Shown here in pieces: positions 49,995 to 64,000 of a stretch of 64,000 bases of DNA. The stretch comes from Nitrosopumilus sp. (GTDB lineage Archaea > Thermoproteota > Nitrososphaeria > Nitrososphaerales > Nitrosopumilaceae). Position numbers and translations under genes: made by a program. Below the pieces are notes generated by a model. The model was given only the letters and a program-made list of their open reading frames with translations. It did no database searches and was not told the DNA's origin. Where the stretch lies: assembly GCA_965205215.1 (NCBI GenBank), contig OZ242041.1, forward strand, positions 1,472,001 to 1,536,000, written 5' to 3'. Each line of letters begins with the position of its first letter. Position 1 is the first letter of the stretch.

Positions 49995-50903
49995 TTGAAC
50001 ATATCCGTCGCGATTCCAGAGACGTCCCTTTCCGACGAGTCCCAAAAGTCCGCAAAGACCCGCAAGGCGTCGGTGATTGCAAGGGCGTGCGCGATATTCG
50101 GGGTTGAGACCATCTACGTGTATGGCGAGGGGGGCGGCAAGGGCGCCAAAAGTACCAGAAACAGCGGCGGCAAGTCAGACGCGGACCTTCTCATCACGTC
50201 CCTGAGGTACTTGGAGACGCCGCAGTTCCTCCGACGACACCTGTTTGCCCGCACAGACGATCTAAAGTTTGCAGGCGTGATGCTCCCACTGCGCATACCC
50301 AGCCATGCCACTTCCAGAAGGCTCGAGGCGGGACAGGTGCGCGAAGGTGTCATAGTCCCCTCGGGGGGACGGAAGGGGAGAAGGGAGGGCGGCGGGCACG
50401 GCGGCGGGAAATTCATAGATGTGGGGGCAAGCAGGCCCCTCAGGTACACGGGCAGGGCCCCTCCGGGAAGACGCGTGACTGTCCGCATAAAGAGCGCGGG
50501 GCCGGACGCCTCGTATGCTGAGATCGACAGGGAGCAGGCGGACTCGTACTGGGGCTACTCGGTAAGGGGCCGCGCATCCCTCCAGTCACTGCTTGCGGAG
50601 TGGAAGGGGCAGATCATAATAACGTCAAGAAAGGGCAGGCCCGTGCGGGGGGCTCCCGCTGGCGGTGGAAGGAAAGGCGGCGGTGCAAGCACGCCCCCAT
50701 CGTCCATACTAAGGGATCGCTCCGACCTGCTGGTCGTGTTCGGCTCGCCTGAGCGCGGGGTCCACGAGATACTCGGGGGAGGTGCAGGGGCCATGAGCAG
50801 CGCCCGCATACTGGACTTTTTTCCGGGGCAGCAGACTGCCACCGTAAGGCTGGAGGAGGCCATCATGGGTGCGCTTGCAATAATAAACGTAGAAGCAGCA
50901 TAG
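49995..50903 (+). CDS. Putative RNA uridine N3 methyltransferase (DUF171, SPOUT)
   Basis: ARACAIFGV, YLETPQFLR, YWGY, FGSPERG, QQTATVRLEEA. Confidence 0.9.
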   Translation: MNISVAIPETSLSDESQKSAKTRKASVIARACAIFGVETIYVYGEGGGKGAKSTRNSGGKSDADLLITSLRYLETPQFLRRHLFARTDDLKFAGVMLPLRIPSHATSRRLEAGQVREGVIVPSGGRKGRREGGGHGGGKFIDVGASRPLRYTGRAPPGRRVTVRIKSAGPDASYAEIDREQADSYWGYSVRGRASLQSLLAEWKGQIIITSRKGRPVRGAPAGGGRKGGGASTPPSSILRDRSDLLVVFGSPERGVHEILGGGAGAMSSARILDFFPGQQTATVRLEEAIMGALAIINVEAA

Positions 50904-51027
50904 TCGCCCTCAAGATAGGCTGTCAGAAGGCGCTCCTTCTGGCCGCCACCGGCACTTTTCAGTCGTCCCTCCCCCTGCCGCGGCCGGGACGATAGCGATA
51001 ATAGGCCGCCGTAGGAGCCAGAAGCGG

Positions 51028-51138
51028 ATGGCCGAGCGAAAAAGCTTCCTTCTGGTGGCGATGGCAGTCGGCGCCGCGGGGATTGCCGCTGGCGCGTACG
51101 TCATGTGGGAGATGCTCGTGCGCGTGACCGGCCCCTGA
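51028..51138 (+). CDS. Small membrane protein (36 aa)
   Basis: MAERKSFLLVAMAVGAAGIAAGAYVMWEMLVRVTGP. Confidence 0.55.
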   Translation: MAERKSFLLVAMAVGAAGIAAGAYVMWEMLVRVTGP

Positions 51139-51164
51139 GCCCCCGCGCGGGCCCGCACCGGCCC

Positions 51165-52511
51165 CTACCTCTTTGGCGGTATCGCAAAGCGGTTGGCCGG
51201 ATCCTGATGATACTTGACGGGCAGCATCGCGTCCTTTTGCCGGCCCGTAAGGATCCCCACCACGACGTCGTCGCGCTTTATCACCTCCTGCCTTACGAGT
51301 TTTCTGATTCCGGCAACGGTGGCCCCGGACGCCATCTCGCAGTCGAACCCGTTGAGCCCCACCACCGACATGCCGTCAAGCATCTCTGCGTCGGACACGG
51401 TGGTGACAACCCCGTCGGTCAGCTCCAGGGCTCTGAGCCCTTTTAGTATGTTGGCGGGCCTCCCAATCTGTATGGCGGTGGCCTTTGTGCGCGGCCTCTC
51501 TCCGCGCCCGTCAAGGTCTGCATAGTATCTTTCGATGGCGTCCTCGTCGGGCAGCCCGGCGTTCCACCGCAGCTCCGTGCCCTCAAATGCCCCGTTGTAC
51601 AGATCCGACAGCGTGCGCGCCCCCTCCGCGTTTATCACGGCTATCCTCGGCATCTTTTTTATCCAGCCCCACCCGTACAGCTCCATCAGGGCCTTGCCGC
51701 AGCTTGACGTGTTTCCGAGCGCTCCACCGGGATACACGATCCAGTCCGGGACCGCCCAGTTCAGGTACTCGAGCGCCCTGAACGGTATGGTCTTCTGCCC
51801 CTCTATCCGGAACGGGTTTATCGAGTTGACCGTATAGCCTCCCCCGGTTCGGGCGTCTGTCAGCGACTGCTGCAGAGCGTCGTCAAAGTTTCCGTCGACC
51901 TCTATTATCTGGGCTCCGAACTGGTACGCCTGGCTGAGCTTGCCGGGGGCAATCTGCCCGGCCGGGATGTACACGTCGCAGGACATGCCCTCGTTTGCGG
52001 CAAACATTCCGGCCGACGCGGACGTGTTGCCGGTCGACGCGCACACGATGCGGTCTGCGCCGGTCAACCTGGCGTGCGTGACGGCGGTGGTCATCCCGTT
52101 GTCCTTGAACGAGCCGCTCGGGTTGTAGCCCTCCGGTTGGAGCCACAGCCCGCCGCTTGCGATGCCGGCAAACTCGGCCGCCTTGGACATGTGGTACGGC
52201 TTTGCCTGCCTGCCCTCGGCCCCGTCAAGGGACACCAGCACGGACGCGCATGCCTGCGCGTCCTCCGTGTCAATCTGGCAAAAGTTGAGCAGTTCCCGGA
52301 ACCGCCAGACCCCGCTCTCGTCAAATATGTTCCCCTGCGAGTTGCGGCGCCTGTAAAAAACATCCTTTGTGCGCACGTGGGGCCCCCGGTCGTACGTCAC
52401 GTCGAGGAGGTGCCCCCTCTCACACTCGACTCTGGCCTCTCCAATCTCGTAGCGGAGGGGGCACTTGGGGTGTATGCACTCAAGATGCGCGCCAGCCTTT
52501 GGACCGTCCAT
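51165..52511 (-). CDS. thrC: Threonine synthase
   Basis: NPSGSFKDNG, CASTGNTSAS, NSINPFRIEGQKT. Confidence 0.93.
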   Translation of the reverse strand: MDGPKAGAHLECIHPKCPLRYEIGEARVECERGHLLDVTYDRGPHVRTKDVFYRRRNSQGNIFDESGVWRFRELLNFCQIDTEDAQACASVLVSLDGAEGRQAKPYHMSKAAEFAGIASGGLWLQPEGYNPSGSFKDNGMTTAVTHARLTGADRIVCASTGNTSASAGMFAANEGMSCDVYIPAGQIAPGKLSQAYQFGAQIIEVDGNFDDALQQSLTDARTGGGYTVNSINPFRIEGQKTIPFRALEYLNWAVPDWIVYPGGALGNTSSCGKALMELYGWGWIKKMPRIAVINAEGARTLSDLYNGAFEGTELRWNAGLPDEDAIERYYADLDGRGERPRTKATAIQIGRPANILKGLRALELTDGVVTTVSDAEMLDGMSVVGLNGFDCEMASGATVAGIRKLVRQEVIKRDDVVVGILTGRQKDAMLPVKYHQDPANRFAIPPKR

Positions 52512-52852
52512 ACTAAGAGGCCGAGGCGTGTTTTTTTAAGCATTTGTAATCAAAACCCCGGCTGCTGGACGCGGCATGCCGAGTGCAACACACCCGGCGC
52601 GCCGGATCCCCCCGCTACAGTATGTCCCGCCCCTCCGTGCATTTCATTCCGGGGGCAGTGGCAGCCGCAGGCGCGCGGTCCCTTTTGGACAAGGGACTTT
52701 CGTGCCGGGCGGCCCTGCACCCGCTCGACGCCGTCCGACGTGGCGGCCGATCCGACGGGTCCCGGGCACGCCCGCGACCGGCACGCCCACTCTGCGTCCG
52801 AGCCGACGCAGGCGTGAGCAATATTTAGATTAAGAATGCGCCGCGTAACGGC

Positions 52853-53227
52853 ATGGTCACATATTCGGGGCACTTGAAGAGGGTGCTGCTCCAGGTACTC
52901 GAGTCGCACGGCGTGCTTGCCGACATCAAGAACACCCCGCTAGACATTGACGGGATAAAGAGGGAGATGCTCCGGATAAACGGATCGCTCAAGGCGGTGC
53001 TCTCAAGCGTTCCCGAGTCAAGCATCACGCACTCGGACTACAAGGCGCTGCGGGCAAAGTTTGCCGCATACCTCGACTCGTACGACTTTGAGGGCGAGCT
53101 TGATGCAATGTACATGCTGTACGCCGAAGACATGATGCGCATAAACAACGTCAGGGCCAAGATATTAGAGGCGCTCGAGGACAAGGGGATGATGAAATCC
53201 ACGATGGAGATGGCAGAACAGCTATGA
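52853..53227 (+). CDS. Hypothetical protein
   Basis: 124 aa helical ORF with upstream AT-rich promoter. Confidence 0.75.
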   Translation: MVTYSGHLKRVLLQVLESHGVLADIKNTPLDIDGIKREMLRINGSLKAVLSSVPESSITHSDYKALRAKFAAYLDSYDFEGELDAMYMLYAEDMMRINNVRAKILEALEDKGMMKSTMEMAEQL

Positions 53228-53364
53228 CGCGCGGCGAGTCCGGAGGCGGCGGCCGGAACGGGGACGACAGGAGGTGCGTACTATGCGGATGTAGGGACCA
53301 CAGGGTGTTCGGGTGCGCAAGGCATGTGGCTGGCAGGTGCTCGTGCAAAAACAAGGAGGCCTGA
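53224..53364 (+). CDS. Cys/His-rich microprotein (46 aa)
   Basis: ATGA overlap with the upstream stop; CVLCGCRDH..GCARH...CSC. Confidence 0.55.
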   Translation: MTRGESGGGGRNGDDRRCVLCGCRDHRVFGCARHVAGRCSCKNKEA

Positions 53365-53369
53365 AGTCG

Positions 53370-53489
53370 TCAGCCCCGCCTTCCGGGGCCCGATCTTATG
53401 TGAAAGTTGAGGCAGCACCCGCATTCCTTCTCGATGCACTCATCCTCGTGGTGGTGCCCGCATATGCCACACTCGCAGCTCCTTGCCAT
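53370..53489 (-). CDS. Metallothionein-like microprotein (39 aa)
   Basis: MARSCECGICGHHHEDECIEKECGCCLNFHIRSGPGRRG; TTATAT about 25 nt upstream. Confidence 0.7.
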   Translation of the reverse strand: MARSCECGICGHHHEDECIEKECGCCLNFHIRSGPGRRG

Positions 53490-53577
53490 CACATATGATA
53501 TGCGGGATCAGCATATAATAGATGCTGCAGGGGCGGCGCCTTGCCCGGCACGCCGCAGGATCCGCCGCGCCGGCCAG

Positions 53578-53913
53578 TCACCGTCTTCGCGCCTGGTTCC
53601 GGCTCTTTCGGCGGCTGCTTGCCGGCGCCTGCTTTTCGTTAAGCTCGTTCTCCCTGGCCTCGGCCTTGCTGTCCACGGCCCTTATCACCTCTTGAATCAT
53701 GCCGTCAAGATCGCTGTCGTCCACGGGCGGCTCCACCCCAGATGCGATCTCGTGGATCGTCTCAGATATCTCCGCGCTCAGATCCTCAAAACTCTCCGGA
53801 TCCTCGTATGCGGCTCCATACAGGTTGCGCAGCGTGTTGACGTGCTCGACGACCTGATCGGTCAGCATGATTCTGTAGTCCGTTCCGTTTATGCTGAACT
53901 CCCTTGAACTCAC
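53578..53913 (-). CDS. Hypothetical protein
   Basis: GTG start; acidic helical core with basic tail. Confidence 0.7.
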   Translation of the reverse strand: MSSREFSINGTDYRIMLTDQVVEHVNTLRNLYGAAYEDPESFEDLSAEISETIHEIASGVEPPVDDSDLDGMIQEVIRAVDSKAEARENELNEKQAPASSRRKSRNQARRR

Positions 53914-54095
53914 AATGGGCCTCTGAGAGGTGTGCTTATAACTTTTAACGAAAAAAGATCCCGGTTCCGGCAGGAGGTGGCGCATCCTGCGGCGGACGGG
54001 GAGTGGCTTCTGCCACACAAGCCGCGCATGCAAGGACGATCATGACTCGAATGGTACATCCGGAGGACAGCGGCGCGTACGCCGCATGCACGAGC

Positions 54096-54548
54096 TCAGA
54101 ATACGATATAGTCAAGCGCCGACGCGTCGCTGATCAGCCTGGTGTGCCTAACCCCGAGCACGTATCCGTTCTTGATGTCGGCGGTGGGAATCCACCTGTT
54201 TGTGGACGTGTAGTGCCGTTTTTCGGCAAGCTCCCTCTCGATTGCCTCTATGTCAAACTCCGCCTCCTCTACCTCCTGGGTGGTCAGGTGCTTTATCGTA
54301 ACCAGTATCTTTGTCACCTTGACGCGGTCGCCAAACTTCCACCGGGACGAGGGGACCTCGTCGGAGACCTCCAGCACCTTTATCTTCATCTGCTTTGTCC
54401 GAAAAACGTCGTAGCTGGTGAGCATCCGCTCGTCGGTAAACTCCTCAAAGCTGGTGCGCGAGCCCGTCTCGGTGTCGGACACCGTGTCGAGCAGGGACTT
54501 TGTCTCAGTGGTGGCCGGCTCCTCCACGTCAAAGTTGCCCGACGACAT
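54096..54548 (-). CDS. Hypothetical protein
   Basis: WKFGDRVKV..KRHYTSTNRWIP..IKNGYV. Confidence 0.8.
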   Translation of the reverse strand: MSSGNFDVEEPATTETKSLLDTVSDTETGSRTSFEEFTDERMLTSYDVFRTKQMKIKVLEVSDEVPSSRWKFGDRVKVTKILVTIKHLTTQEVEEAEFDIEAIERELAEKRHYTSTNRWIPTADIKNGYVLGVRHTRLISDASALDYIVF

Positions 54549-54570
54549 CGCAGATCGTACGCCCCCACTA

Positions 54571-55248
54571 CTAAAAAATGATTCGCGCGCCGCGGACAGC
54601 CTCTGCGGGCTGCCGCGTCTCAAACGGCATGACGCACTCGGCGCCCCGGACCGGCACCCTGTAGTCGCTGTCGAGCCCCTCTCGCCTTGTATAGAATCTT
54701 CCGTCGTACGTGCATATGCACTCGGTCGTCTTCGACCTGTGCCCCCTGACCTTGTAAAACTCGTGTAGCTCCCTTGGGCGGTACTCGGCCGTCCCTATGC
54801 GCCTCTTTGAGATGAACTTGTAGGCAAGTATGACATGGCGCTTCTTGAACGCCGAGAACGTGTCGGCCCATACCCGGCAGCGCTCCACCTGCTCGGCCGG
54901 AACCGACAGCGCGGTGCCCGAACCGGACTTTGCCTCAATTACGACCAGGTGCCCCTTCTTCGGGTTCACGGCCAGTATGTCCGGTAGCCCCGTACTGGGG
55001 GAGCCGAGCCGGAAGGCCCTCCATCCCTCGCTCGAGTTGAACCGCTTTACCAGCGTGTCCTCCCACTGGTAGCCTCGCTGGCGGCGGGTGCGCGCTGCGG
55101 CCCTGTTGCCGCTGCTGTTGCCGCCGCGTTCGTGCTTTGTACGACCCTGGCGCCGCCCAGCGGCAGAACCGCGGCCGCGCACGTCGCCGGCCTGCCCCGG
55201 ATCGGGGGCGCCGTGCGCGGGTGGACCCGCCCGGCGTGCCATAGTCAT
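54571..55248 (-). CDS. Hjc-like PD-(D/E)xK nuclease/resolvase
   Basis: RGYQWE..LV, LPDILAV, VIEAKS. Confidence 0.8.
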   Translation of the reverse strand: MTMARRAGPPAHGAPDPGQAGDVRGRGSAAGRRQGRTKHERGGNSSGNRAAARTRRQRGYQWEDTLVKRFNSSEGWRAFRLGSPSTGLPDILAVNPKKGHLVVIEAKSGSGTALSVPAEQVERCRVWADTFSAFKKRHVILAYKFISKRRIGTAEYRPRELHEFYKVRGHRSKTTECICTYDGRFYTRREGLDSDYRVPVRGAECVMPFETRQPAEAVRGARIIF

Positions 55249-55388
55249 GCCAGCCGCTCCCCGCCCGGCGGTTATATCTTGTGCTGATTGCGGAACGGAC
55301 GGCATCGGATCCGGGTTCCCGCGCAATCCGGCTGCGGGCATTCCAGAGGGAGATCCGATGGACAAATTTGAAGCTGCGCCTACGAAAG

Positions 55389-56171
55389 ATGGTTATACCG
55401 CGCGCGCCCATACATGCCGTGGCCCTCAAGCGCATCTGCGACGGCACGTGCAAAAACTACGGCGTAAAGAAGCCTGCGGCCGGGGGAAGGTACGTGGCAG
55501 GACAGGCAAGGTGCCAGACGTGCGACATGTGGATAGACCACCAGGGGGCGCACCTATTTGGTGGCAGGCCCGCCACGGCGGGCTCGAAGGGATGGTTCTG
55601 CAACTGCTGCAACTACAGGGTCAGGCGCAATCCAAGGAACATAGTGTACAAGTCAAAGCTGCGGAGCAACGCTTATGACGCAGGCTCCATGACCGCCACG
55701 GACGAGCTCGGGATGAGGGGGGCAGGCAGGGACCCCAGAGGCGCGTCCTTGGGGGTGGGAGGTGACGAGGAGGAGGAGGAGGAGCATCCGCGCATAGACC
55801 TGTCTTACTTTAACAAAAAACGTGCCATGATGCTCAGGGAGCTCGGCGCGCTCATGGCCCGCATGGGCCATGATCCCGAAAATCTGGCCGAGGGCTTTCC
55901 CCTGCGACACGGGTGGACCGTATCGGACATCGCGACGGAGTTTGACGCAGGGTTTGGCGAGGTGGTGAGGCACGCCGTCGGCAGCGAGCCCAACAAGATA
56001 TCGCTGATAGCGGACTTTGAGATGGCAAGGGACAAGGCGGGCAGGGTTCCGACGCCGCAGGACATGCAGGAGCACTCGCGGTTTGCCATATCGGACTACA
56101 AAAGAGAGTTCAAGTCGTGGGAGCATTTTCTCGATAGGCTCGGGTACGATCCGTGGTATCGCGGTAACTAG
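55389..56171 (+). CDS. Cys-rich zinc-finger fused to homing-endonuclease-associated repeat
   Basis: CDGTC..RCQTC..FCNCCNYR; C-terminal GRVPT.....F....Y...F.SW. Confidence 0.7.
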   Translation: MVIPRAPIHAVALKRICDGTCKNYGVKKPAAGGRYVAGQARCQTCDMWIDHQGAHLFGGRPATAGSKGWFCNCCNYRVRRNPRNIVYKSKLRSNAYDAGSMTATDELGMRGAGRDPRGASLGVGGDEEEEEEHPRIDLSYFNKKRAMMLRELGALMARMGHDPENLAEGFPLRHGWTVSDIATEFDAGFGEVVRHAVGSEPNKISLIADFEMARDKAGRVPTPQDMQEHSRFAISDYKREFKSWEHFLDRLGYDPWYRGN

Positions 56172-56289
56172 CTGCGGCGGCGGCCGGACTGCAGTACGGC
56201 GCCCGCGCCAAAAAGGAAGCTGCGTTTGGGATGCAGGTTACAAAGCCTGGACGTCACAGGCGGCGCTGCCGCCGTAGCCGACTCGTGCC

Positions 56290-58902
56290 CTACGAGACGG
56301 TCTCGTTTACGATGCGCTCAATCTCGCCTTTGGACATGGCATCAAGCATCTTTTGCAGTATGCCGCCAAGCGTGTCGTCGCCTTCCGTGTATCCTACCGA
56401 CAGCGTGTACTCGTCTGCAATCGTACCTGCTTCTGCCAGGTTCTCGATGCCGTTACTGGCCGCAATGTATCTTGCAACTTCCCACACGTCCAAAAAGGCA
56501 TCGGCGCTGCCGTCAGATACCATGGTCAGCGCCGTCTGTGCGGAGTCGGCAGACTCGTACGCCACATCGGGCATGTTCTCATCCAGCCAGGTCTCCACGG
56601 CATAGCCGTCCACCGTCACCACCTCGTAGTCTGCAAGGTTCTCAGACGTTATGACGTCGGCGTTCTCCTCAAGCGTGATTATCGAGATCGGTATTGTTAT
56701 CCACGGCTCCGTAAAGTCCATGTACTCGTCCCTCTCCGCAGTGTTCTCGACTACAAACAGCACGTCGGCCGTTCCGTCTTTCATGCGGTCGAGCGCATCG
56801 TTCCAGGATTCAATTGCAGGATCCGCCTCCGCGAACTGGGAGCCGGTCATGCCCTCGAGCGCGTCTGCAATGGCTCCGGACACCCCCGCAAGGCTTCCCT
56901 CGTCATCCACGTACTCGTACGGGGGCCATGCAGGGTCATACGCGACCGTTATCACCGGATGATCCTCAAGCCAGGCCTGCTCCGCGTCGTCAAACGAGAC
57001 CTCCGCCACCGGTGGTTCGGATTCCATGTAGTAGCCGGCTGCGAATATGTAGCCGTCGTGCATCTCAAGCAGCGTGACCTTTTCGGCGTCCTCGCCGGTC
57101 TCGGGGTTCACAAACGTATAGGTCATCCACGTCTGGGCCCCGTCACCCGATAGCTCCTCCATTATTTGCTCCGCGTCCTTGTCCGGATCGGTTACTAGAT
57201 CAAACAGGTATCCCCCGATAATATCCGTGTCCGCGCCGTGCGCCGCGACTACAAGCATGTCGTCAAGCACGAACGGGTACGATGGATAGTCCGTGCTCAT
57301 CGCGTCTATGGCCGCAAACGTCGCGTCCATTCCAAGCTCCTTGTACATCTCGACCGCGGTGCCCACGGACCACATAACCTCCGTCTTCTTGGCATACTCA
57401 CCAGTCAGATAGAACCCGGCTCCGAATGTGTAGCCGTCATGCATGACAAACCATGCCTTTTTGGCCTGCTGCTCGCCGGTCTCGGGGTTCAGGAACACGT
57501 ACTTTCCGAACACCCCCTGTCCCTCGTCAAACGCGCCCTTGGAGTCCCGGATGGCCGCGCTCATCTGGTACGGCTCCCAGATCTTCTGGCCTGTCCGGTC
57601 GAGTATGGAGCCGTCTGCGACCTCCGTGTTTGCCGAGTCCATTACAAACGGATACCACTCTTTCTCGACGCTGAGGGCCGTGATCTCGGCAAAGGCGTCC
57701 TGCCCGCCCTCTGCATACATTGCAAGGGCGTTGTCTGTGGACATGATGGCGTTGATCTTTTTCGTCTGGAATTCGTCTGGGTAGAACCCCGCCCCGAACG
57801 CGTAGCCGTCGCGTATCACGAGCCAGGAGAGCTTTATCTCCTCTGCCTGGGTCTCAAAGTTCGTAAACGTGTATGTCACCCAGGCGCCGCCGTTGAGTTC
57901 GGACTCTGTCTGGATCAGTTCAATGGACTTGTTCGAGTCTGTAATAGCCACGGACACGTCGCCCACGCGTGACGCATCGGCACCGTGCGCCGCCACCACC
58001 TCGGCTTTAATGTCGACGACAAACGGATAGGTTCCTCCCGGCATATAGCCCTCGGCGGCATCAGTTATCATGTCAAATGAGTCGGTCCCGTGCTCATCGT
58101 ACAACCCCGCCGCCGAATTTGCAACCCACATTGCAACGATCATCTCGGCTTCAAGATTATTGAGGTAGAATCCGCTGGCAAATATGTGGCTGCCGTGCAG
58201 CGCGAGGTACGACTTTTTAGTCTGCATCTCCCCGGTTGCGGGGTTTGTAAACGGATACATGACCCAGGTCTCGCCGTTCTCGTCAAGCTCGGCCCTGATC
58301 TCGTCGTACGTCTTCTCGCCGTCGTCCAGCGCGCTCGACATGGTGCCGACCAGGGTTGCGTTGAATCCGTGCGCAAGTATGGTCAGCGTGTCATAATCGA
58401 TGACAAACACATACGGCGATTCTGCGTCGTACGTCTCTGCACCCGCGGTTATTGCATCAAGCGCGCCCTCGCCGTCCGACTCGTACGCTTCAACGGATTC
58501 GGTGACCAAGGTCCTGACATCCTCCTTCATATCGGCAAACCGGTCGCTAAACATGGTCATCGACACCACAAGGGCGGACTCCGGCTCCGTGACATCCTCA
58601 GAGGTCGCCGTCTCGCCGTCTTCGGGCTCCACCGCCTCCATGTCCGCTGAGGCAGCCTCAACTATGGTCGCAAATTCCATGGCGGTCAAGCGGTCCACCG
58701 ACGAAGAGAGTGCGCAGATCGGATCCCCGTTTGCCTTGAGCATCAGTACGCGCTCGCCGTTGCATGCGACGTCCTCTGGCGCCGTGCCTTTTGCAACCTG
58801 TTTTGCGGGCGATGGGTTGTCCATGTCGGCATACGCCGCCCCGGACGCCCCGGCAGCAATTAGAGAAAGTGCAAGTAACAAGAATAACGGGCGGCTGGCC
58901 AA
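56290..58902 (-). CDS. Exported protein: 4 sCache_2-like domains + type-2 solute-binding (SBP_bac_3) domain
   Basis: Signal peptide from TTG 58902; SPxKQ..C..PxC domain; four FxxGFY/YY-ended units; WLEDHP.ITV..DPAWPPYE..ERDEYMDFTEP. Confidence 0.85.
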   Translation of the reverse strand: MASRPLFLLLALSLIAAGASGAAYADMDNPSPAKQVAKGTAPEDVACNGERVLMLKANGDPICALSSSVDRLTAMEFATIVEAASADMEAVEPEDGETATSEDVTEPESALVVSMTMFSDRFADMKEDVRTLVTESVEAYESDGEGALDAITAGAETYDAESPYVFVIDYDTLTILAHGFNATLVGTMSSALDDGEKTYDEIRAELDENGETWVMYPFTNPATGEMQTKKSYLALHGSHIFASGFYLNNLEAEMIVAMWVANSAAGLYDEHGTDSFDMITDAAEGYMPGGTYPFVVDIKAEVVAAHGADASRVGDVSVAITDSNKSIELIQTESELNGGAWVTYTFTNFETQAEEIKLSWLVIRDGYAFGAGFYPDEFQTKKINAIMSTDNALAMYAEGGQDAFAEITALSVEKEWYPFVMDSANTEVADGSILDRTGQKIWEPYQMSAAIRDSKGAFDEGQGVFGKYVFLNPETGEQQAKKAWFVMHDGYTFGAGFYLTGEYAKKTEVMWSVGTAVEMYKELGMDATFAAIDAMSTDYPSYPFVLDDMLVVAAHGADTDIIGGYLFDLVTDPDKDAEQIMEELSGDGAQTWMTYTFVNPETGEDAEKVTLLEMHDGYIFAAGYYMESEPPVAEVSFDDAEQAWLEDHPVITVAYDPAWPPYEYVDDEGSLAGVSGAIADALEGMTGSQFAEADPAIESWNDALDRMKDGTADVLFVVENTAERDEYMDFTEPWITIPISIITLEENADVITSENLADYEVVTVDGYAVETWLDENMPDVAYESADSAQTALTMVSDGSADAFLDVWEVARYIAASNGIENLAEAGTIADEYTLSVGYTEGDDTLGGILQKMLDAMSKGEIERIVNETVS

Positions 58903-59041
58903 TGGTACAGGGTAGGAAAGAAGCAATATTAGCGTTATGTCAGATGTGGCGTACTGCGCGATTCCCCAATCCGCTCCGCCAAGGGGTGCGGCCCTGCTCA
59001 TGGCGCAGGCCGAGGCCGTCACATGCTGGGCGCCATACCTG

Positions 59042-59956
59042 TCAGATGACAGTCAGCCACTGCCTGAACCTGCTGTCCCTGCCCGCTACGACATCTGCAA
59101 ACGACTTTTGCAATCCTTTTGTAATTCGTCCCATGCGGCCTGTCCCGATTCTGGCCCTGTCTACCTGCGTGACCGACCTTATCTCTGCGACCGTGCCTGT
59201 CATGAACACCTCGTCCGCGACATACAGGTCGTCCCTGTACAAGTCGTACTCTGCGACATCCATCCCGTCGGCCTCTGCTATTCGCATCACGCTGTCCCTC
59301 GTGATGCCGTCCAGGCATCCAGTCGAGAGCGGCGGCGTCAGTATCGAGCCGTCCCTGCATACGAATATGTTCTCGACGCAGCCTTCTGCCACCCTGCCGT
59401 CTGTGTTCAGTATGATGGCCTCGTCGTACCCGTTCTCAGATGCCTCGATCCTTGCGAGTGTGGCACTAGAGTAGTTGGCGGCCACCTTTGCCTGTATGGG
59501 CTGGGCCCTAGGGTCTATCCTGACCCAGCTTGACACCATGCATCTTGCGCCGGAAAACTTGCCGGCCTTCGATTCGCCCATCTTCCAGGGCCAGCACGAT
59601 ATGGAGAGATCAACCTTGTTCCTTGTAGGCGTGAGGCCCATCTCGCCGTACCCGTAGTATGCCAGGGGGCGTATGTAGCCCTCCTTGAGCCCGCACGCGC
59701 GCACCGTATCGATTATGGCATCGAGGACCTGTCGCCTGGTGTATCTGAGCTTCATAGAGTATGTCTTGGCCGAGCGGAACAGCCTCTCTACGTGATCCTC
59801 AAGCCTGAATATTGCGGGGCCTTCGCGCGTATTGTAGTACCTGATGCCGTCAAATACCGCCGTGGAGTAGTGCAGTGCATGCGTCAAGACGTGCACCTTT
59901 GCATCCCGAAACGGCACCAGGCGGCCGTCCATCCATATCTTGCGGGATTCCTTCAT
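59042..59956 (-). CDS. ilvE: Branched-chain amino acid aminotransferase (fold IV), atypical active-site motifs
   Basis: THALHY, HVERLFRSA, YIRP, AKVAANY, GITRDSV, ADEVFMTGT. Confidence 0.88.
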   Translation of the reverse strand: MKESRKIWMDGRLVPFRDAKVHVLTHALHYSTAVFDGIRYYNTREGPAIFRLEDHVERLFRSAKTYSMKLRYTRRQVLDAIIDTVRACGLKEGYIRPLAYYGYGEMGLTPTRNKVDLSISCWPWKMGESKAGKFSGARCMVSSWVRIDPRAQPIQAKVAANYSSATLARIEASENGYDEAIILNTDGRVAEGCVENIFVCRDGSILTPPLSTGCLDGITRDSVMRIAEADGMDVAEYDLYRDDLYVADEVFMTGTVAEIRSVTQVDRARIGTGRMGRITKGLQKSFADVVAGRDSRFRQWLTVI

Positions 59957-60294
59957 GGTGGGCGTTACGGATGTGTTGTTTAAATAGGTGTTAATGTGTG
60001 GCTGCACACTAGTGACCGCGCTTCGCGTCGTCTTGTCGGCGCCTTTCTGTGCAGGTGCGGGCGCAAGCGTGTTGTTGCTGATCTTCCCCAAGCCCTGCCA
60101 GTAAAACGCGTACCGTGCCAAACGGACACAGGGCTGGCCCCCTATTGCAGATCACAGGCAGGATGCGCGGCATGTCCCAGCGGCAGCAGCAACAGCAACA
60201 GCAACGGCAAAACCTATCATCTGCATCACAGGACCGGCAGGCCCGGCCTCTGGCGGTGTCCTTTCGTCGAGGTTGCTCGGACGCGCGGCCGTCG

Positions 60295-61431
60295 CTAGTC
60301 TTGCTCTTCGCCAAGGACCTCGCGCGTGATCAGCAGCAGCTGCGCGTCGGTAATCCTCTCTCCCCGGTCGGCCGATGCCTTGACCCGGTCTAGGATCCGC
60401 CTCGACTGCCCCTCTGTCGGTCTGATGCCATAGTTTCCCAGGGCGGCGTTCAGTCCCAGGACTCCGGTGTGTTTCCCCACGTAGATCTGGTGCTTTCGCC
60501 CCACTAGTTCGGGACTGAACGGCTCGTATGTCATCTGATTGTCCAGCATGGCATCGGTGTGAATCTCATCCTCGTGGCTAAACGCATTGTCGCCTACGAC
60601 CGCCTTGTTCGGCTGCACCTGTATTCCCATAACTTTTGATATGAACCTTGACGTGTCATAGATCAGCTCGGACTTTATCCCCGTCTCGTACTTTTGATCA
60701 TACCGGAGGCACTTTAGCGCCATTGCAAGCTCCTCTAGCGACGCGTTCCCGGCCCTCTCCCCGATCCCGTTGATCGTCACCTGCGCGCAAAAGGCCCCGG
60801 CCCTGATTCCAGACAGCGTGTTTGCCACCGCCAGCCCAAAGTCGTTGTGACAGTGGACACTTACCGGGGTGCCGGCCGCGGCAGATACGGCGTCGCGCGT
60901 GAGTTCGGCCATGTACTCCGGGGTGGCGCATCCGGTAGTATCCGGAATGGTAACTGTATAGGCCCCTGCCTTTGCAACCTCGCCAAGTATGTCCCTCAAG
61001 AACCCCCTCTCGGTCCTTGTCGCGTCCACCGCCCCGAACTCCACCTTCAGCCCCCTGGACTTTGCATACTCGACTGCCTCGATTGCCTGTTCAATCGCAT
61101 GGGCCTTGGTCATTTCGCGGTTGTGTCTTAGGTGAATGTCCGAGGTCGCAACAAAGGTGTTGATGTAACTCAGCCCCGTGTCGGCGGCAACGTCGATGTC
61201 CCTTTTGTTGGCCCTTGTCATTCCGCAGATTTCAGACGACAGTCCTTCGCCGGTTATCATCCTTGCCGCCTGCCGCTCGCCCTCCGAGGTCGTCGGAAAG
61301 CCGGCCTCGATTACGTCCACACCCAGGGCGTCAAGTCTTTTTGCGATTTCGAGTTTTTGATCAGGGGTCAGTGATATCCCGACTGTCTGCTCCCCGTCTC
61401 GCAGCGTGGTGTCAAAGATTCGGATCCTCAT
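60295..61431 (-). CDS. 2-isopropylmalate synthase-like DRE-TIM enzyme lacking the regulatory domain
   Basis: [33 protein letters not shown]; only 378 aa. Confidence 0.88.
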
Positions 61432-61969
61432 GCCCTCACCATATCAAACTTGACCCGCTTAGTTTGCCGACAGATGCCGGACGGTTGGCCCGGGAGCTGC
61501 CCAAACCATGCGCCGCAAAAACAACGGCGTCGCGCCCTGTTCTGTCTACCGGCCAGCTCCAAGACCGACTTGTCATGTATGGTGCAACGGCGCTCCGCCG
61601 TGACATCCAAAAAGCCGTTCCCCCCACGCGGCCGTGGTTTGCGAACATCCCATACACCAGTGACAGCATCGCGTGGCACAAATTTAACTATAGCTGTGCA
61701 TTGAGGCTGGAAACTCTTGGCGACCCGCCCAGTGTTACTTTCGTCCTTGTGCTTTTTGCGAATAATCCCCTCTGTCTTTGGCGGGCCTAGCTTTCCCACT
61801 GCCCGGAATCTCGGATTTTTGACGTGACGTCACTTGGATAAACTCTGTTTTCTAATTTTTTCCTCTACCTCCACCCCCCCCCCCTCTCCCCCCCTCCCTC
61901 CCTCCCTCACCCACGCACGCACGCTCCCCGTACAGTGCGTTTATCAGCGCCTTTCCCTACGCATCTGCA

Positions 61970-62860
61970 GTGTACAGCGCAATCGCAGACGGCATTACGT
62001 CCGTAAAGAGGGAGATGTCCAAGAGTTACTCCGGAAGAGCTCACATACAGGAGGCGCTTCCCGTAAGACCGTCAAATGAGGCATTCCCAATCGAAGAGTC
62101 TCACCTGAGGGCCCTCCACGGGTTTGCCGCGTCCAACCCGATATACCACGGCTCGTTCCGGCAGGATCTGGCGGGCACGGAGTGCACCATATACGAGGGG
62201 GACATAAACGAGTACTGGCTTGGCAGCATAAAGCACGGGACAAGCTGCCAGCCGTTCTATCCCACGTGGCTGGCTTCTGCGTACGTCCTGGCCGCGGCCG
62301 CCAAGGGGTTTGGATGCACCGAACTTGTCGACATCGGGTCAGGCGACGGACGCATCGCGTTTTGCGCCGCCCTGCTTGGAATGAAGGCGTACAGCATAGA
62401 GATAGACGACTCGCTTGTCAAACTTCAAGAGGAGGTGGCGGCCTCGACGGGGACGGACTTCGGCCCCGTATGCATGGACGCGCTTGCGGCGGACTACGGC
62501 GGCATGGATATCTCGAGGCCCGCGTTTGCCGTGGGAGGACTGCCGCAGATGGGCGGGGAGATGCTGGTAGAGGGACTGCTTGAAAAGATCGAAGACTGTG
62601 GCGACTCCGTCATGTCGGAGGCCGTCGTGATACTTGCAGGCGAGGGGGACAGCAGCGGCCCCGCAGCAAGGAGGAGAAGAGAGGGAACGGGCGGCCTGGG
62701 AGGATGGGAGTCCACAATAGCAAAGTACGGACTGTCGGCAAGGCGCGTGATAAACCTTCCGACTGTCTGGACGTTTGATCAGGATAAAGAGACGCCCTAC
62801 ATATTCGCCGGGCTTGCGGGGTCCTCGGAGACACCTGGCGTGGAGACCTCGAATACGTAG
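61970..62860 (+). CDS. Putative class I SAM-dependent methyltransferase
   Basis: FYPTW, LVDIGSGDGRI, SIEID. Confidence 0.75.
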   Translation: MYSAIADGITSVKREMSKSYSGRAHIQEALPVRPSNEAFPIEESHLRALHGFAASNPIYHGSFRQDLAGTECTIYEGDINEYWLGSIKHGTSCQPFYPTWLASAYVLAAAAKGFGCTELVDIGSGDGRIAFCAALLGMKAYSIEIDDSLVKLQEEVAASTGTDFGPVCMDALAADYGGMDISRPAFAVGGLPQMGGEMLVEGLLEKIEDCGDSVMSEAVVILAGEGDSSGPAARRRREGTGGLGGWESTIAKYGLSARRVINLPTVWTFDQDKETPYIFAGLAGSSETPGVETSNT

Positions 62861-63240
62861 CCCGATCCGTTTGGGCCCATGCCACAGGAGCTCAGCACCA
62901 CCAAGTCGCCAGGCGCCGGCGGCGTGGGCGCCACAAGCCGTGCAATCAGCCGTATGCCGCACTCGAATGCAACCAGACAGAAGAACGAGCGCCTAACGCT
63001 GCTGTTGCCGGGGAGCCGCCCGACAGGCATTTCCATGCTGCACTCTACTATGCGGCCCCGCAGCCTCTTGCCGCCGTCGCCGTCGCCATCGCCGTATCCG
63101 GACCCAAGCCGGACCCCGCCAAGGCAGACACTGCAGAACTCTGACGGGGGCCATACGGCCGCGCCGCATTCTGTGCATTCGGGCACCCTGAACAGCCCGC
63201 GCCCAATGGCTTGCTCAAACTCAGAGAGTACCGCGCTCAT
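62797..63240 (-). CDS. DUF35 (zinc-ribbon + OB-fold) thiolase partner
   Basis: ECTECG..WPP..FCSVC; ATGA-coupled to the thiolase. Confidence 0.85.
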   Translation of the reverse strand: MSAVLSEFEQAIGRGLFRVPECTECGAAVWPPSEFCSVCLGGVRLGSGYGDGDGDGGKRLRGRIVECSMEMPVGRLPGNSSVRRSFFCLVAFECGIRLIARLVAPTPPAPGDLVVLSSCGMGPNGSGYVFEVSTPGVSEDPASPANM

Positions 63241-64000
63241 CGTACCATCACCAGTGCGGTAGACGAGGTGCCGGCGGCCGCCATGTTGTGGACCAGTCCG
63301 ACCTCGGGGTCGTCCGCCTGCCTGCCGCGGGCCTGGCGCCACAGCTGCCGTGCAACCTCGGCTGCCTGCGCAAGCCCAGTCGCCCCCAGCGGATGTCCCG
63401 AGCCGATCAGTCCCCCGCGAGGGTTTACCCGGCGGCTTGCAGTCTCGTACAGCTCCCGGCTGGCCGCGGCGCCCCTGCCAGGCTCCGCCATGCCGAGCGC
63501 CTCGAGTATCATCGGCTCGCACACCGAGAACGCATCGTGTATCTCCGCAACGTCCACATCTGATATCGACAGGGCCGCGCCGCCCCCGCGCGCCACGCCA
63601 CCGTTCCTGCTTCCGGCCATCCGCAGGGCGTCGCGGCACGCCATCCTGGCAGACTCGATGCGCGAAAGCTCAGGGTGCTTGGCAAACCCGGCCGACGTGA
63701 CGCTCTGTCCTACACCCGCTATCAACACGGGGTCGTCCGTGTATCTGCCGGCGGCGTCTTCGGATGCAATCAGTATCGACGCCCCTCCCGTGCAGGGCCG
63801 GGAGCAGTCAAGCAGCCTGAGGTCCCCGGTCAGGCGCCTTGAGCCGGCCACGTCCTTTGCCGTCGGAGTTGCTTCCGGCCGCAGCGCGTCCGGGTTTGAA
63901 CTCGCATTCGCGTATGCGCGCGCCGGCACTACGGCCAGATCGTCATCGGAGACTCCAAACGCCCTCTTGTAGCCGCTCGTGAGCAGGGACGCCCAGTATA
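63237..64000 (-). CDS. Thiolase (SCP2-type acetyl-CoA acetyltransferase), 5' partial
   Basis: AEIHDAF, NPRGGL..GHPLGATG, HNM. Confidence 0.92.
   Translation of the reverse strand, partial: YWASLLTSGYKRAFGVSDDDLAVVPARAYANASSNPDALRPEATPTAKDVAGSRRLTGDLRLLDCSRPCTGGASILIASEDAAGRYTDDPVLIAGVGQSVTSAGFAKHPELSRIESARMACRDALRMAGSRNGGVARGGGAALSISDVDVAEIHDAFSVCEPMILEALGMAEPGRGAAASRELYETASRRVNPRGGLIGSGHPLGATGLAQAAEVARQLWRQARGRQADDPEVGLVHNMAAAGTSSTALVMVR

Follow-up and report, generated by a model that had tools for sequence, protein, structure and literature searches.

Nitrosopumilus sp. carries, beside an ordinary full-length isopropylmalate synthase (IPMS; LeuA1), a shorter LeuA-type protein, LeuA2, that is changed where engineers mutate LeuA to alter its substrate. 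We consider, with moderate confidence, that LeuA2 is an active Claisen-condensing DRE-TIM enzyme of the LeuA/homocitrate-synthase group that escapes feedback control and whose preference among 2-oxoacids has shifted. The gene is conserved, under selection and restricted to a lineage. In the window (the whole stretch of 64,000 nucleotides that was analysed) it is found as follows:

60295..61431, minus strand: LeuA2, a 378-aa LeuA-type condensing enzyme with an HMGL-like TIM barrel and an HCS_D2 domain.

The HMGL-like domain spans residues 2-263 (E 1.2e-79) and HCS_D2 residues 278-357, and both pass the Pfam gathering thresholds (PF00682, 267.9 bits against a cut-off of 29; PF22617, 70.2 bits against 27). 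A Pfam search of the 378-aa protein did not find the LeuA_dimer domain (PF08502), and by alignment LeuA2 ends where the C-terminal domain starts in its 504-aa relatives and in E. coli LeuA. The first-pass annotation had placed the end of the protein at the start of the LeuA allosteric domain, and the loss of that domain is real. Taken alone it says little about LeuA2, since regulator-free forms are frequent in the LeuA family: NCBIfam holds models of 363-374 positions for short forms, and many of 150 family representatives are 380-410 aa long. None of the NCBIfam LeuA/IPMS models reaches its cut-off on LeuA2 (TIGR02090, 464.9 against 484.75; NF002085, 460.4 against 517; NF041069, 439.8 against 600; TIGR00973, 374.5 against 598.7; NF042434, 157.7 against 500). 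For comparison, the citramalate synthase model TIGR00977 scores 192 against 450.

LeuA2 retains the catalytic residues of the family. It reads RDGEQ (R11, D12, Q15), HCH (H193, H195), GERAGN and TYEP (Y302), so that the DRE, HxH, GERAGN and TYEP motifs reported earlier are all there, and the set R11, D12, Q15, T165, H193, H195, H291 and Y302 is invariant or nearly so in the LeuA2 clade. Aligned to the Brassica juncea MAM synthase (PDB 6e1j), R11, D12, Q15 and T165 correspond to R89, D90, Q93 and T257, and H193, H195, H291 and Y302 to H288, H290, H388 and Y399; the roles of these residues in MAM synthase are described in PMC11532901.

Around this catalytic set, every motif change listed in the first-pass annotation is present. 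LeuA2 reads GMTR for the GLAR of Nitrosopumilaceae LeuA, INTF for canonical IHTF, EFGAVD (FGAVD in the earlier list) for EFSAED, VTIPDT for IDIPDT in Nitrosopumilaceae LeuA and INIPDT in E. coli, HLRHNR for HLxxKL, and HEDEIH (H286-E-D-E-I-H291) for HESGIH. EFGAVD and HED.IH occur in 12/12 proteins of the clade and INTF in 11 (the remaining one has IVTF), all six intact genomic copies carry the changed motifs, and 50 of 50 canonical LeuAs from genomes of the family read EFSAED and HESGIHT. The changes are therefore neither chance nor sequencing noise. Canonical Nitrosopumilaceae IPMS (504-506 aa, including LeuA1) is 65-72% identical to LeuA2 over the catalytic and HCS_D2 domains and has the metal ligands and the catalytic His and Tyr in common with it. 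When the 12 LeuA2 sequences are set against 153 canonical ones, 194 of the 378 positions are conserved with the same residue in both sets, and only 24 are conserved with a different one. These 24 positions, which include 71, 91, 94, 104, 133, 135, 168, 285, 288, 293 and 300, take in pocket positions (71, 91 and 133), the Lys/Glu pair at 104/135 and the loop from 285 to 293.

Several of the changes map to the side-chain pocket. The first-pass annotation had assigned them from M. tuberculosis IPMS, whose L143, H167, S216 and N250 presumably match the first four changed positions. The assignment holds on the sequences of E. coli LeuA, in which L73, H97, S139, E141, N167 and P169 align with M71, N91, G133, V135, T161 and P163 of LeuA2, and of MAM synthase 6e1j, in which V182, G225, E227 and A253 align with N91, G133, V135 and T161. 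Substrate choice is known to depend on the changed positions in E. coli LeuA, where, as had also been claimed, S139G, N167A and H97A have been engineered and admit larger 2-oxoacids (PMC3370425), in MAM synthase (V182, E223, A253 and P255; PMC8468904) and in HphA (Table 1 of PMC12961565). The pocket signature of LeuA2, MNGTP, is found in none of the 150 family representatives; LHSNP is found in 71. The replacements of Leu by Met, His by Asn, Ser by Gly and Asp or Asn by Thr would give a roomier, uncharged pocket with two polar side chains, so LeuA2 probably prefers a larger substrate than 2-oxoisovalerate or one of another kind. Candidates would be 2-oxo-3-methylvalerate, 2-oxoisocaproate, 4-methylthio-2-oxobutanoate or a straight-chain C5-C6 2-oxoacid. 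The earlier proposal of a neofunctionalised enzyme for a bulkier or different 2-oxoacid thus stands as to the changes at substrate-choice positions, but the substrate is one that we infer, and a deregulated IPMS is the main rival. An AlphaFold2 monomer of LeuA2 has a mean pLDDT of 79.8; residues 272-314 (the HEDEIH loop and Y302) fall below 50, and hence the model is uninformative there.

The closest functional parallel is plant MAM synthase, which matches LeuA2 at E 5.9e-73 (PDB 6e1j). Like LeuA2 it is LeuA-derived and regulator-free, has Gly at the Ser139 equivalent and is altered at the His97- and Asn167-equivalent positions. The parallel with MAM synthases, drawn earlier from loss of the regulatory domain plus Ser-to-Gly, is seen again in the 6e1j alignment, and LeuA2 shares the wider feature set: a paralog beside a kept LeuA, no regulator, Ser-to-Gly and a predicted enlarged pocket. 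However, LeuA2 is of independent, archaeal origin, nested in Nitrosopumilaceae LeuA rather than sharing descent with MAM synthase, and no glucosinolate-type pathway is present in its organism. MAM synthase also keeps Glu227 and HESGIH and has Val and Ala where LeuA2 has Asn and Thr. Engineered E. coli LeuA (S139G, N167A, H97A and P169A with G462D) is altered at four pocket positions, of which LeuA2 is naturally changed at three, and has lost feedback control, as is predicted for LeuA2. In contrast to the engineered enzyme, LeuA2 has Asn and Thr instead of Ala or Gly, keeps P163 and additionally alters the Glu/Lys pair and the His loop. The short IPMS lineages (Sulfolobus-type NF041069 and Leptospira LeuA2, NF042434) have, like our LeuA2, about 370 aa and only the catalytic and HCS_D2 domains, but LeuA2 is a recent offshoot of long LeuA and falls outside both families.

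All 12 proteins of the LeuA2 clade have Val in place of Glu at position 135, and the partner position 104 has gone from Lys to Asn. The Glu-to-Val change had been put forward as a possible sign of a pseudo-enzyme, which is not borne out. Among the 150 representatives position 135 is Glu in 134, Met in 12 and Leu, Tyr or Val in one each, and the 104/135 pairs are K-E (128), R-E (5), Q-M (9), S-M (3) and, once each, S-L, Q-V, S-E and K-Y. The active-site Glu (E227 of MAM synthase, E141 of E. coli LeuA) is missing in 15 of the 150. Within this set positions 104 and 135 co-vary across the LeuA family, and loss of the Glu is evidently tolerated in nature: the family's 'catalytic' Glu varies with a Lys and looks dispensable in about a tenth of representatives. 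Because the paired loss reaches about 10% and some of these proteins (the Met-type P0276 and P0278) exceed the NCBIfam LeuA equivalog cut-offs, loss of Glu135 is no pointer to a pseudo-enzyme. EFSPMD is likewise read in a full-length protein with a LeuA pocket in four of five Bathyarchaeia genomes. In MAM synthase, E227A and E227D leave no detectable activity and E227Q lowers kcat 13-fold (PMC11532901); therefore V135 could be costly to LeuA2.

The Met-type relatives, including the regulator-free LeuA-IlvE fusions P0387 and P0502, resemble LeuA2 in their uncharged pair at 135/104, and the fusions also in lacking the regulator and in a physical tie to a branched-chain aminotransferase. They differ in combining Met with Gln or Ser, in a canonical L/H/S/N/P pocket and in the HESGIH loop, and share only 40-46% identity with LeuA2. 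Relatives that naturally lack the Glu still have Ser/Ala-Gly ahead of the catalytic His and give no precedent for the HED[E/K/R]IH loop, which matches 0 of the 150 representatives; Gly stands at the equivalent of position 289 in 146 of them, and Glu, Lys or Arg in the LeuA2 clade. The loop may be a new solution around the catalytic His. A speculative idea is that H291 is now tuned by D288, an invariant residue three positions ahead of it, in place of the lost E135.

Genome G000 has three HMGL-like genes: LeuA1, LeuA2 and a homocitrate-synthase-like gene that reads RFTVED. LeuA1, the second full-length leuA for which the first-pass annotation advised a search, reads FSAED and HESGIH and has leuB just downstream. 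It is also seen in four of the five other LeuA2-bearing genomes. LeuA1 was not found in G282, but there leuB lies 533 bp from the contig start, where the LeuA1 site would fall, and the genome is 89% complete, so we do not take this as absence. LeuA2 was found in six of 151 genomes of the genus. The LeuA2 clade (SH-aLRT 100, stem of 0.41 changes per site) nests within Nitrosopumilaceae LeuA in a tree rooted on Bathyarchaeia; the tree proposed earlier therefore places LeuA2 inside LeuA and not with homocitrate synthase. In the unconstrained tree the neighbours of LeuA2 are P0012, P0016 and P0019 rather than the LeuA1 of its own genome, but a clade of LeuA2 with its own LeuA1, a group named after the tree had been seen, is not rejected by the AU test (p 0.165). 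LeuA2 may have arisen by duplication in the lineage or by transfer from a related lineage.

Selection on LeuA2 is purifying. Its dN/dS is 0.084-0.166 over 10 unsaturated pairs from five genomes, far from the value near 1 that had been named as a mark of decay, and the gene is therefore not decaying; LeuA1 gives 0.032-0.101 in four of those five genomes. Six of the seven genomic copies are intact, including that of G278, which has a normal stop two codons early. The copy in G201 is broken by one stop and two frameshifts and is located elsewhere than the island site. Two degenerate clade-motif patterns were also scanned against JGI metagenome contigs and gave no further copies: the first had no match, and the two loci picked up by the second are unrelated proteins that match by chance.

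LeuA2 lies in an inserted block, with these features:

55366..61969: inserted block of about 6.7 kb with the HNH-repeat ORF, the Cache/SBP gene, ilvE2 and LeuA2.
54571-55365: Hjc-like gene flanking the block.
61970-62860: conserved 296-aa gene flanking the block.
55281..56171, plus strand: ORF encoding a homing-endonuclease-associated domain (HNH_repeat), situated at the block's far edge.
56290..59022, minus strand: protein of 910 aa, predicted to be extracytoplasmic, that carries Cache-type domains and, at its C-terminus, an amino-acid-type solute-binding domain (SBP_bac_3).
59042..59956, minus strand: ilvE2, a 304-aa branched-chain aminotransferase.
59957..60294: LeuA2-ilvE2 spacer of 338 bp, with a short GTT/GCT trinucleotide run near 60178-60212.
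61432..61969: non-coding stretch of 538 bp upstream of LeuA2, with a G-rich tract (minus strand) at about 61860-61925.

The Hjc-like and 296-aa genes adjoin in G110, G013 and G203, all of which lack LeuA2 (no match above 70%), and are about 1.8 kb apart in G201. The ilvE2 gene is a duplicate of ilvE1 (G000:C1:747213-748124), 80% identical to it, and shows only six mild conserved differences from ordinary IlvE. It starts with an ATG at 59956, with a TATTTAAA box at 59979-59986, and the Cache/SBP gene starts 19 bp past its stop. Independent contigs bridge the LeuA2-ilvE2 junction, and related contigs have insertions within the spacer. No Rfam match was obtained in 59900-62100 at E up to 1, and no tRNAs in 50000-64000.

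The link between LeuA2 and the transaminase is loose. The two genes adjoin in G000, G341 and G278, where ilvE2 has an internal stop, and are not side by side in G282, G342 and G201; in G282 the Cache/SBP gene adjoins LeuA2. Regulator-free LeuA domains are fused to Aminotran_4 in P0387 and in seven of the best 120 longer matches. These LeuA-IlvE fusions keep the canonical L/H/S/N pocket and may be ordinary leucine enzymes; in the open-access literature we found nothing on an isopropylmalate synthase-aminotransferase fusion protein in Legionella. No dedicated isomerase or dehydrogenase paralog lies near LeuA2, and the genome's complement of three aconitase-family and two Iso_dh loci is no larger than housekeeping pathways would explain.

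In our preferred reading, a Nitrosopumilaceae LeuA would have lost its leucine-binding C-terminal domain and then acquired a rebuilt 2-oxoacid pocket and catalytic-His loop, so that LeuA2 probably condenses a different 2-oxoacid with acetyl-CoA. The 2-oxoacid would be bound by R11, T165 and a divalent metal coordinated by D12, H193 and H195, and acetyl-CoA would be enolised by H291, stacked on Y302. We infer that the 2-alkylmalate product would pass to the housekeeping LeuCD-type isomerase and LeuB, while IlvE1, or IlvE2 in genomes that have it, would convert an amino acid into the 2-oxoacid and later aminate the elongated product. Such an enzyme would be a natural experiment in the recruitment of primary metabolism, parallel to the origin of plant MAM synthase.

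A bolder extension, which we regard as doubtful, is an archaeal amino-acid homologation that arose independently of MAM and HphA. An amino acid from outside the cell, perhaps from a host, would be captured by the extracytoplasmic Cache/SBP protein and deaminated by IlvE. LeuA2 would extend it by a carbon unit via acetyl-CoA, with an Asp288-His291 pair in place of the Glu-Tyr-His relay, and LeuCD and LeuB would complete the cycle. Either a homo-amino acid or an elongated 2-oxoacid would result, destined for a specialised metabolite. Ammonia-oxidising archaea are usually regarded as having a streamlined metabolism, and hardly any specialised metabolism is known from them. Should the substrate prove to be an amino acid that a host provides, the island would count as a candidate symbiosis trait.

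The main rival, possible though we hold it to be unlikely, is that LeuA2 is a deregulated IPMS isozyme that still condenses 2-oxoisovalerate with the leucine shut-off gone. It could then serve to overproduce leucine (e.g., for a host) or to turn valine into leucine, and the altered pocket would do no more than broaden or retune it. LeuA2 does come from the LeuA lineage and retains E131 and P163 in the pocket, short IPMS enzymes are recognised families (NF041069, NF042434), the regulator-free LeuA-IlvE fusions have a canonical pocket, and E. coli LeuA S139G variants still serve working leucine-type pathways (PMC3370425). A near-identical stretch also occurs in runs labelled sponge metagenome (no RNA run is listed among the 24). 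Supply of essential amino acids by a symbiont would suit a sponge setting; a search of the open-access literature found nothing on the isopropylmalate synthase of sponge Thaumarchaeota. However, the clade has fixed, at four pocket positions, a combination absent from all 150 representatives, LeuA2 falls below every NCBIfam LeuA/IPMS cut-off, and plain deregulation requires neither the long stem nor a new catalytic loop. Even a merely feedback-free IPMS would be a candidate route to leucine overproduction.

It is improbable that LeuA2 has little or no catalytic activity and serves as a subunit that joins LeuA1 in the domain-swapped dimer, altering the activity or leucine sensitivity of LeuA1. 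The lost E135, whose Ala and Asp replacements inactivate MAM synthase (PMC11532901), and the exchange of the near-universal G289 for Glu, Lys or Arg would fit such a role. The metal, substrate and catalytic-His residues are nevertheless all retained across the clade, which would be needless in a non-catalytic protein; the pocket residues are fixed and not drifting, and Glu135 loss is common in apparently ordinary LeuAs. We give similarly little credence to changed chemistry within the DRE-TIM fold, for example another acyl-CoA donor, release of an unhydrolysed CoA-thioester or an aldolase/lyase-type reaction. The unique changes do gather at the catalytic-His loop (S288D, G289E/K/R, G285S) and at 103-105, adjoining the lost Glu/Lys pair, and the loop residues are near in sequence to the catalytic His, close to which the CoA thiol lies in MAM synthase (PMC8468904). 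Yet R11, Q15, H291 and Y302, which position or enolise acetyl-CoA in MAM synthase (PMC11532901), are unchanged, and the nearest relatives of LeuA2 are all acetyl-CoA condensing enzymes.

A citramalate synthase (using pyruvate) or a homocitrate-type synthase (using 2-oxoglutarate or 2-oxoadipate) is very improbable. The best NCBIfam model for LeuA2 spans IPMS, citramalate and homocitrate synthases jointly, and G133 and T161 are shared by a second long LeuA-like protein of Bathyarchaeia (EFGPED, ITPPDT), which we take to resemble methanogen-type CimA. That protein, however, has Phe at 71 and 91, shrinking its pocket, whereas LeuA2, with M71, N91 and G133, has none of the bulky residues of citramalate-type narrowing. 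Homocitrate synthases have Arg in place of the Glu that LeuA2 retains as E131 (PMC12961565, Table 1) and, as the second half of this strand-5 basic/Thr pair for the distal carboxylate, Thr for the Ser that is G133 in LeuA2. A homocitrate-synthase-like gene is already in the genome, and LeuA2 itself is nested in LeuA.

The short LeuA-type paralog LeuA2 is genuine and conserved, evolves under purifying selection and represents a new sequence variant inside a well-known enzyme family. The gene and its neighbours are arranged as follows:

60295-61431, minus strand: LeuA2 ORF (378 aa)
59957-60294: LeuA2-ilvE2 spacer (338 bp), after LeuA2
59042-59956: ilvE2, a branched-chain aminotransferase gene, 3' of LeuA2 beyond the spacer
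56290-59022: Cache/SBP protein (910 aa), beginning 19 bp after ilvE2
54571-55365: Hjc-like gene
61970-62860: conserved gene (296 aa)

LeuA2 consists of HMGL-like (residues 2-263) and HCS_D2 (278-357) domains, and the Pfam search found no LeuA_dimer domain; the C-terminal regulatory domain is gone, as the first-pass annotation had claimed, and every motif change it named is present in the sequence. The top NCBIfam model is TIGR02090 (464.9 bits, slightly below the 484.75 cut-off), the scope of which is archaeal isopropylmalate, citramalate and homocitrate synthases. The NCBIfam LeuA, homocitrate and citramalate models all fall below their own cut-offs. The nearest solved structures are Neisseria meningitidis IPMS (3rmj; E 8.7e-81) and Brassica juncea MAM synthase (6e1j; E 5.9e-73).

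The search for a second, full-length leuA succeeded. The window's own genome, G000 (one 2.10-Mb contig), encodes three HMGL-like genes: LeuA1, LeuA2 and a homocitrate-synthase-like gene. LeuA1 is full-length, with VHTF, EFSAED, IDIPDT, HESGIH and the C-terminal domain, and leuB follows it directly. Among the best 120 of 8000 scored hits in a protein-collection search with LeuA2 were 12 short proteins (316-386 aa; 78-100% identity) and 108 canonical LeuAs (500-506 aa; at most 72% identity). All 12 short proteins carry EFGAVD, VTIPDT and HED[E/K/R]IH, with INTF in 11 and IVTF in one; EFSAED and HESGIHT occur in all 50 canonical LeuAs extracted. Across 151 genus genomes we found LeuA2 in G000 and, intact, in five others (identity 97% in G341, 94% in G294, 91% in G278, 90% in G282 and 78% in G342). 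A candidate internal TGA break in the G278 copy was rejected, as this TGA is its stop, two codons early. A sample of 200 other family genomes yielded no match above 70% (G093, G092 and G077, flagged as unpublished, were used for this tally only). LeuA1 is also present in four of the five other LeuA2 genomes; it was not found in G282 (89% complete), where a contig start is 533 bp away from leuB, in the place expected for LeuA1. A metagenome-assembled genome in the public species collection (locus L089, contig JAPPIP010000023.1) has a LeuA1 near-identical to that of G000 (tree distance ~0.01), and thus a very close relative was assembled independently.

In a tree rooted on Bathyarchaeia (an unrooted version was also made), the 12 LeuA2 proteins group together in a single clade (SH-aLRT 100; stem 0.41 changes/site) deep within Nitrosopumilaceae LeuA, adjoining the representatives P0012, P0016 and P0019. 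LeuA1 of G000 is placed elsewhere, away from this clade, and an AU test did not reject a LeuA2 plus LeuA1 clade (p 0.165), so that the paralog may have arisen by in-situ duplication or have been transferred from a relative. The dN/dS of LeuA2 is 0.084-0.166 (10 pairs from five GC-rich genomes; the five pairs with G342 are saturated) and that of LeuA1 0.032-0.101 (four of the same genomes). Thus, LeuA2 is not decaying but clearly subject to purifying selection, to a somewhat lesser degree than LeuA1.

Twelve LeuA2 sequences were compared with 153 canonical LeuA sequences over 378 positions (LeuA2 numbering). We found 194 positions conserved and identical in both groups and 24 conserved but different, including M71, N91, V94, N104, G133, V135, C168, S285, D288, D293 and M300. 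The changed positions are the barrel-strand ends lining the 2-oxoacid pocket and the loop bearing the catalytic His. Alignments place the altered motifs on known residue numbers: M71, N91, N104, G133, V135, T161 and P163 correspond to L73, H97, K110, S139, E141, N167 and P169 of E. coli LeuA, and N91, E131, G133, V135 and T161 to V182, E223, G225, E227 and A253 of 6e1j. The catalytic set aligns with 6e1j as H291=H388, Y302=Y399, R11/D12=R89/D90, Q15=Q93, T165=T257 and H193/H195=H288/H290. Passages of a review bear out the earlier remark that similar pocket changes were engineered into E. coli LeuA, where S139G admits 2-oxo-3-methylvalerate and N167A, H97A and P169A admit longer chains (PMC3370425). 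Excerpts of two further papers report that V182, E223, A253 and P255 set MAM synthase specificity (PMC8468904) and that the same pocket positions do so in HphA, HCS and IPMS (Table 1, PMC12961565). Among 150 wider-family representatives (36-64% identical), 71 have the five-residue pocket signature LHSNP and none has the LeuA2 signature, MNGTP.

The best-supported reading, at about an even chance, makes LeuA2 an acetyl-CoA:2-oxoacid condensing enzyme that is active and leucine-insensitive; its preference would have shifted from 2-oxoisovalerate, and it would use the housekeeping LeuCD, LeuB and IlvE; no dedicated isomerase or dehydrogenase accompanying LeuA2 was found in G000. A deregulated isopropylmalate synthase is a minority possibility, consistent with the missing regulatory domain; against it stands the altered pocket signature.

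Regulator-free LeuA domains occur elsewhere in fusions. The 684-aa protein P0387 (HMGL-like, HCS_D2, Aminotran_4) is an in-frame fusion of such a domain with a class-IV aminotransferase. Its architecture recurs in seven of the 120 best longer hits, and an eighth adds LeuA_dimer. Eight of the nine fusion proteins (P0387, P0425, P0431, P0446, P0461, P0479, P0491, P0502 and P0467; one named from Legionella feeleii) lack the regulatory domain, and each of the nine combines Met135/Gln104 with a canonical LeuA pocket. We found no paper on LeuA-branched-chain aminotransferase fusions in the open-access library searched. The fusions support a functional link of such LeuA-type enzymes with IlvE. Ordinary leucine synthesis fits them equally, since IlvE acts at both ends, converting valine to the LeuA substrate and completing the leucine pathway. 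We also observed fusions of LeuA-like domains to aconitase-family (LeuC-like) domains (~850-1000 aa) and to UbiA prenyltransferases (~830-890 aa), in P0272, P0403-P0419 and others, and in P0274, P0288, P0320, P0471 and P0495. The four UbiA fusions in the representative alignment (P0274, P0288, P0320 and P0330) read I-A-A/T-G at positions 71, 91, 133 and 161.

The first-pass annotation had suggested that the Glu-to-Val and HEDEIH changes could indicate changed chemistry or a pseudo-enzyme. According to excerpts of a MAM synthase study, E227 lies one shell outside the reaction centre and hydrogen-bonds Tyr399, the stacking partner of the general base His388; E227A and E227D are inactive, E227Q lowers kcat 13-fold, and the authors term the residue 'important, but not necessary' (PMC11532901). 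Position 135 carries Glu in 134 of the 150 representatives and Met in 12, while Leu, Tyr and Val occur once each; its covariation with position 104 is almost perfect (104-135 pairs: K-E 128, R-E 5, Q-M 9, S-M 3, S-L 1, Q-V 1, S-E 1, K-Y 1). The HLxYKL to HLRHNR and FSAED to FGAVD changes are thus two halves of a single paired change, and we infer from N104 with V135 that LeuA2 has lost an ion pair. In the LeuA family this Glu/Lys pair looks dispensable and co-evolving. The Glu-less P0276 and P0278 pass the NCBI LeuA equivalog cut-offs, and EFSPMD occurs in full-length, LeuA-pocket proteins of four of five Bathyarchaeia genomes (G239-G242; loci L147-L150), which removes the chief pseudo-enzyme argument. 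Other Glu-less representatives include P0248 and P0250. Glu-less proteins, full-length ones above the NCBI LeuA cut-offs among them, make up ~10% of LeuA-family representatives in all, and the Lys of H-L-x-x-K-L is nearly always Gln or Ser in them. A non-catalytic partner of LeuA1 is an unlikely reading. The Glu-less relatives do not account for the HED[E/K/R]IH loop. Changed chemistry is similarly unlikely; the changes in this loop speak for it and the retained catalytic residues against it. Asp288 is invariant in LeuA2 and occurs in none of the 150 representatives, 146 of which have Gly289; three residues ahead of H291, it might take over tuning of this His. The AlphaFold monomer has pLDDT <50 over residues 272-314. 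A citramalate or homocitrate synthase, within the scope of TIGR02090, is very improbable given the LeuA placement, and the homocitrate-synthase-like gene of G000 reads RFTVED and HKAGTH.

In G000, ~6.7 kb (HNH-repeat ORF, Cache/SBP, ilvE2 and LeuA2) is inserted between the Hjc-like and 296-aa genes, which abut directly in G110, G013 and G203, genomes without LeuA2. G341 shares this island. LeuA2 is followed by ilvE2 and the contig end in G278, and directly by the Cache/SBP gene, without ilvE2, in G282; it lies 250 bp from the contig start in G294, the downstream side being outside the contig, and stands alone in an unrelated context in G342 (GC 42%). These contexts make LeuA2 the element that came first and is self-sufficient; a single sub-lineage subsequently gained the ilvE duplicate, which has not been kept in every case. 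This duplicate is 80% identical to ilvE1 (at 747 kb; dN/dS 0.15), differs from ordinary IlvE by six mild conserved changes only, and is preceded by a TATTTAAA box of its own, 23-30 nt ahead of the ATG; 24 other genus genomes sampled have one such ilvE and a distant class-IV paralog. The G278 ilvE2 (L181 10763-11680) is interrupted by a stop codon (SISCWP*KMG) at a site encoding Trp in the other four copies, and the LeuA2 beside it is intact. In the 910-aa protein, several Cache-like repeats are combined with an SBP_bac_3 solute-binding domain at the C-terminus, and no output domain is recognisable; the G282 version, directly adjoining LeuA2, is 66% identical. Between threonine synthase and the island (52853-56171) lie three short, conserved ORFs that match no Pfam family (52853-53227, 53578-54033 and 54096-54623), the Hjc-like nuclease gene and the HNH-repeat ORF. 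All of these but the last keep their synteny in relatives; the HNH-repeat ORF was seen only with the ilvE2-bearing island (G000, G341).

A seventh LeuA2 copy, in G201 (93% identity; L106 6001-7137 and 7135-7992), is interrupted by a TAG at codon 141 and by two homopolymer-run frameshifts. It lies away from the 296-aa and Hjc-like genes, which are ~1.8 kb apart there. Compared with G000, its dN/dS is 0.10 and dS 0.5; the LeuA1 and ilvE genes of the two genomes are saturated (pS 0.89-0.96); its GC is 51% versus 41% for its locus. This copy looks like a recent transfer that was then broken and is decaying, or that bears (long-read) assembly errors. It is followed by ~650 bp of extremely low-complexity, codon-repeat sequence.

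The LeuA2-ilvE2 stretch is nearly whole (0.83-1.00 of sampled words) in five public runs from four studies; one is labelled sponge metagenome, and at least one of the five may be the window's own source. No RNA run is among the 24 runs listed for this stretch. Contig pieces from runs X3, X4 and X5 stop at 61856, and 61857-61930 was flagged as a skipped repeat in read placement. A long G-rich tract (minus strand; GGGA, GGGG and similar runs) occupies 61860-61925, between the LeuA2 upstream region and the 296-aa gene. Logan contigs of X5 bridge Cache/SBP to ilvE2 (1925 bp, 47 differences) and ilvE2 to LeuA2 (706 bp), and the listed indels that fall within both coding regions are in-frame or compensated; a further 37 indels lie outside this listing. 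The spacer contains a short GTT/GCT trinucleotide run (60178-60212), and related contigs have insertions of 13 nt at 60177 and 1 nt at 60251, so its length is variable.
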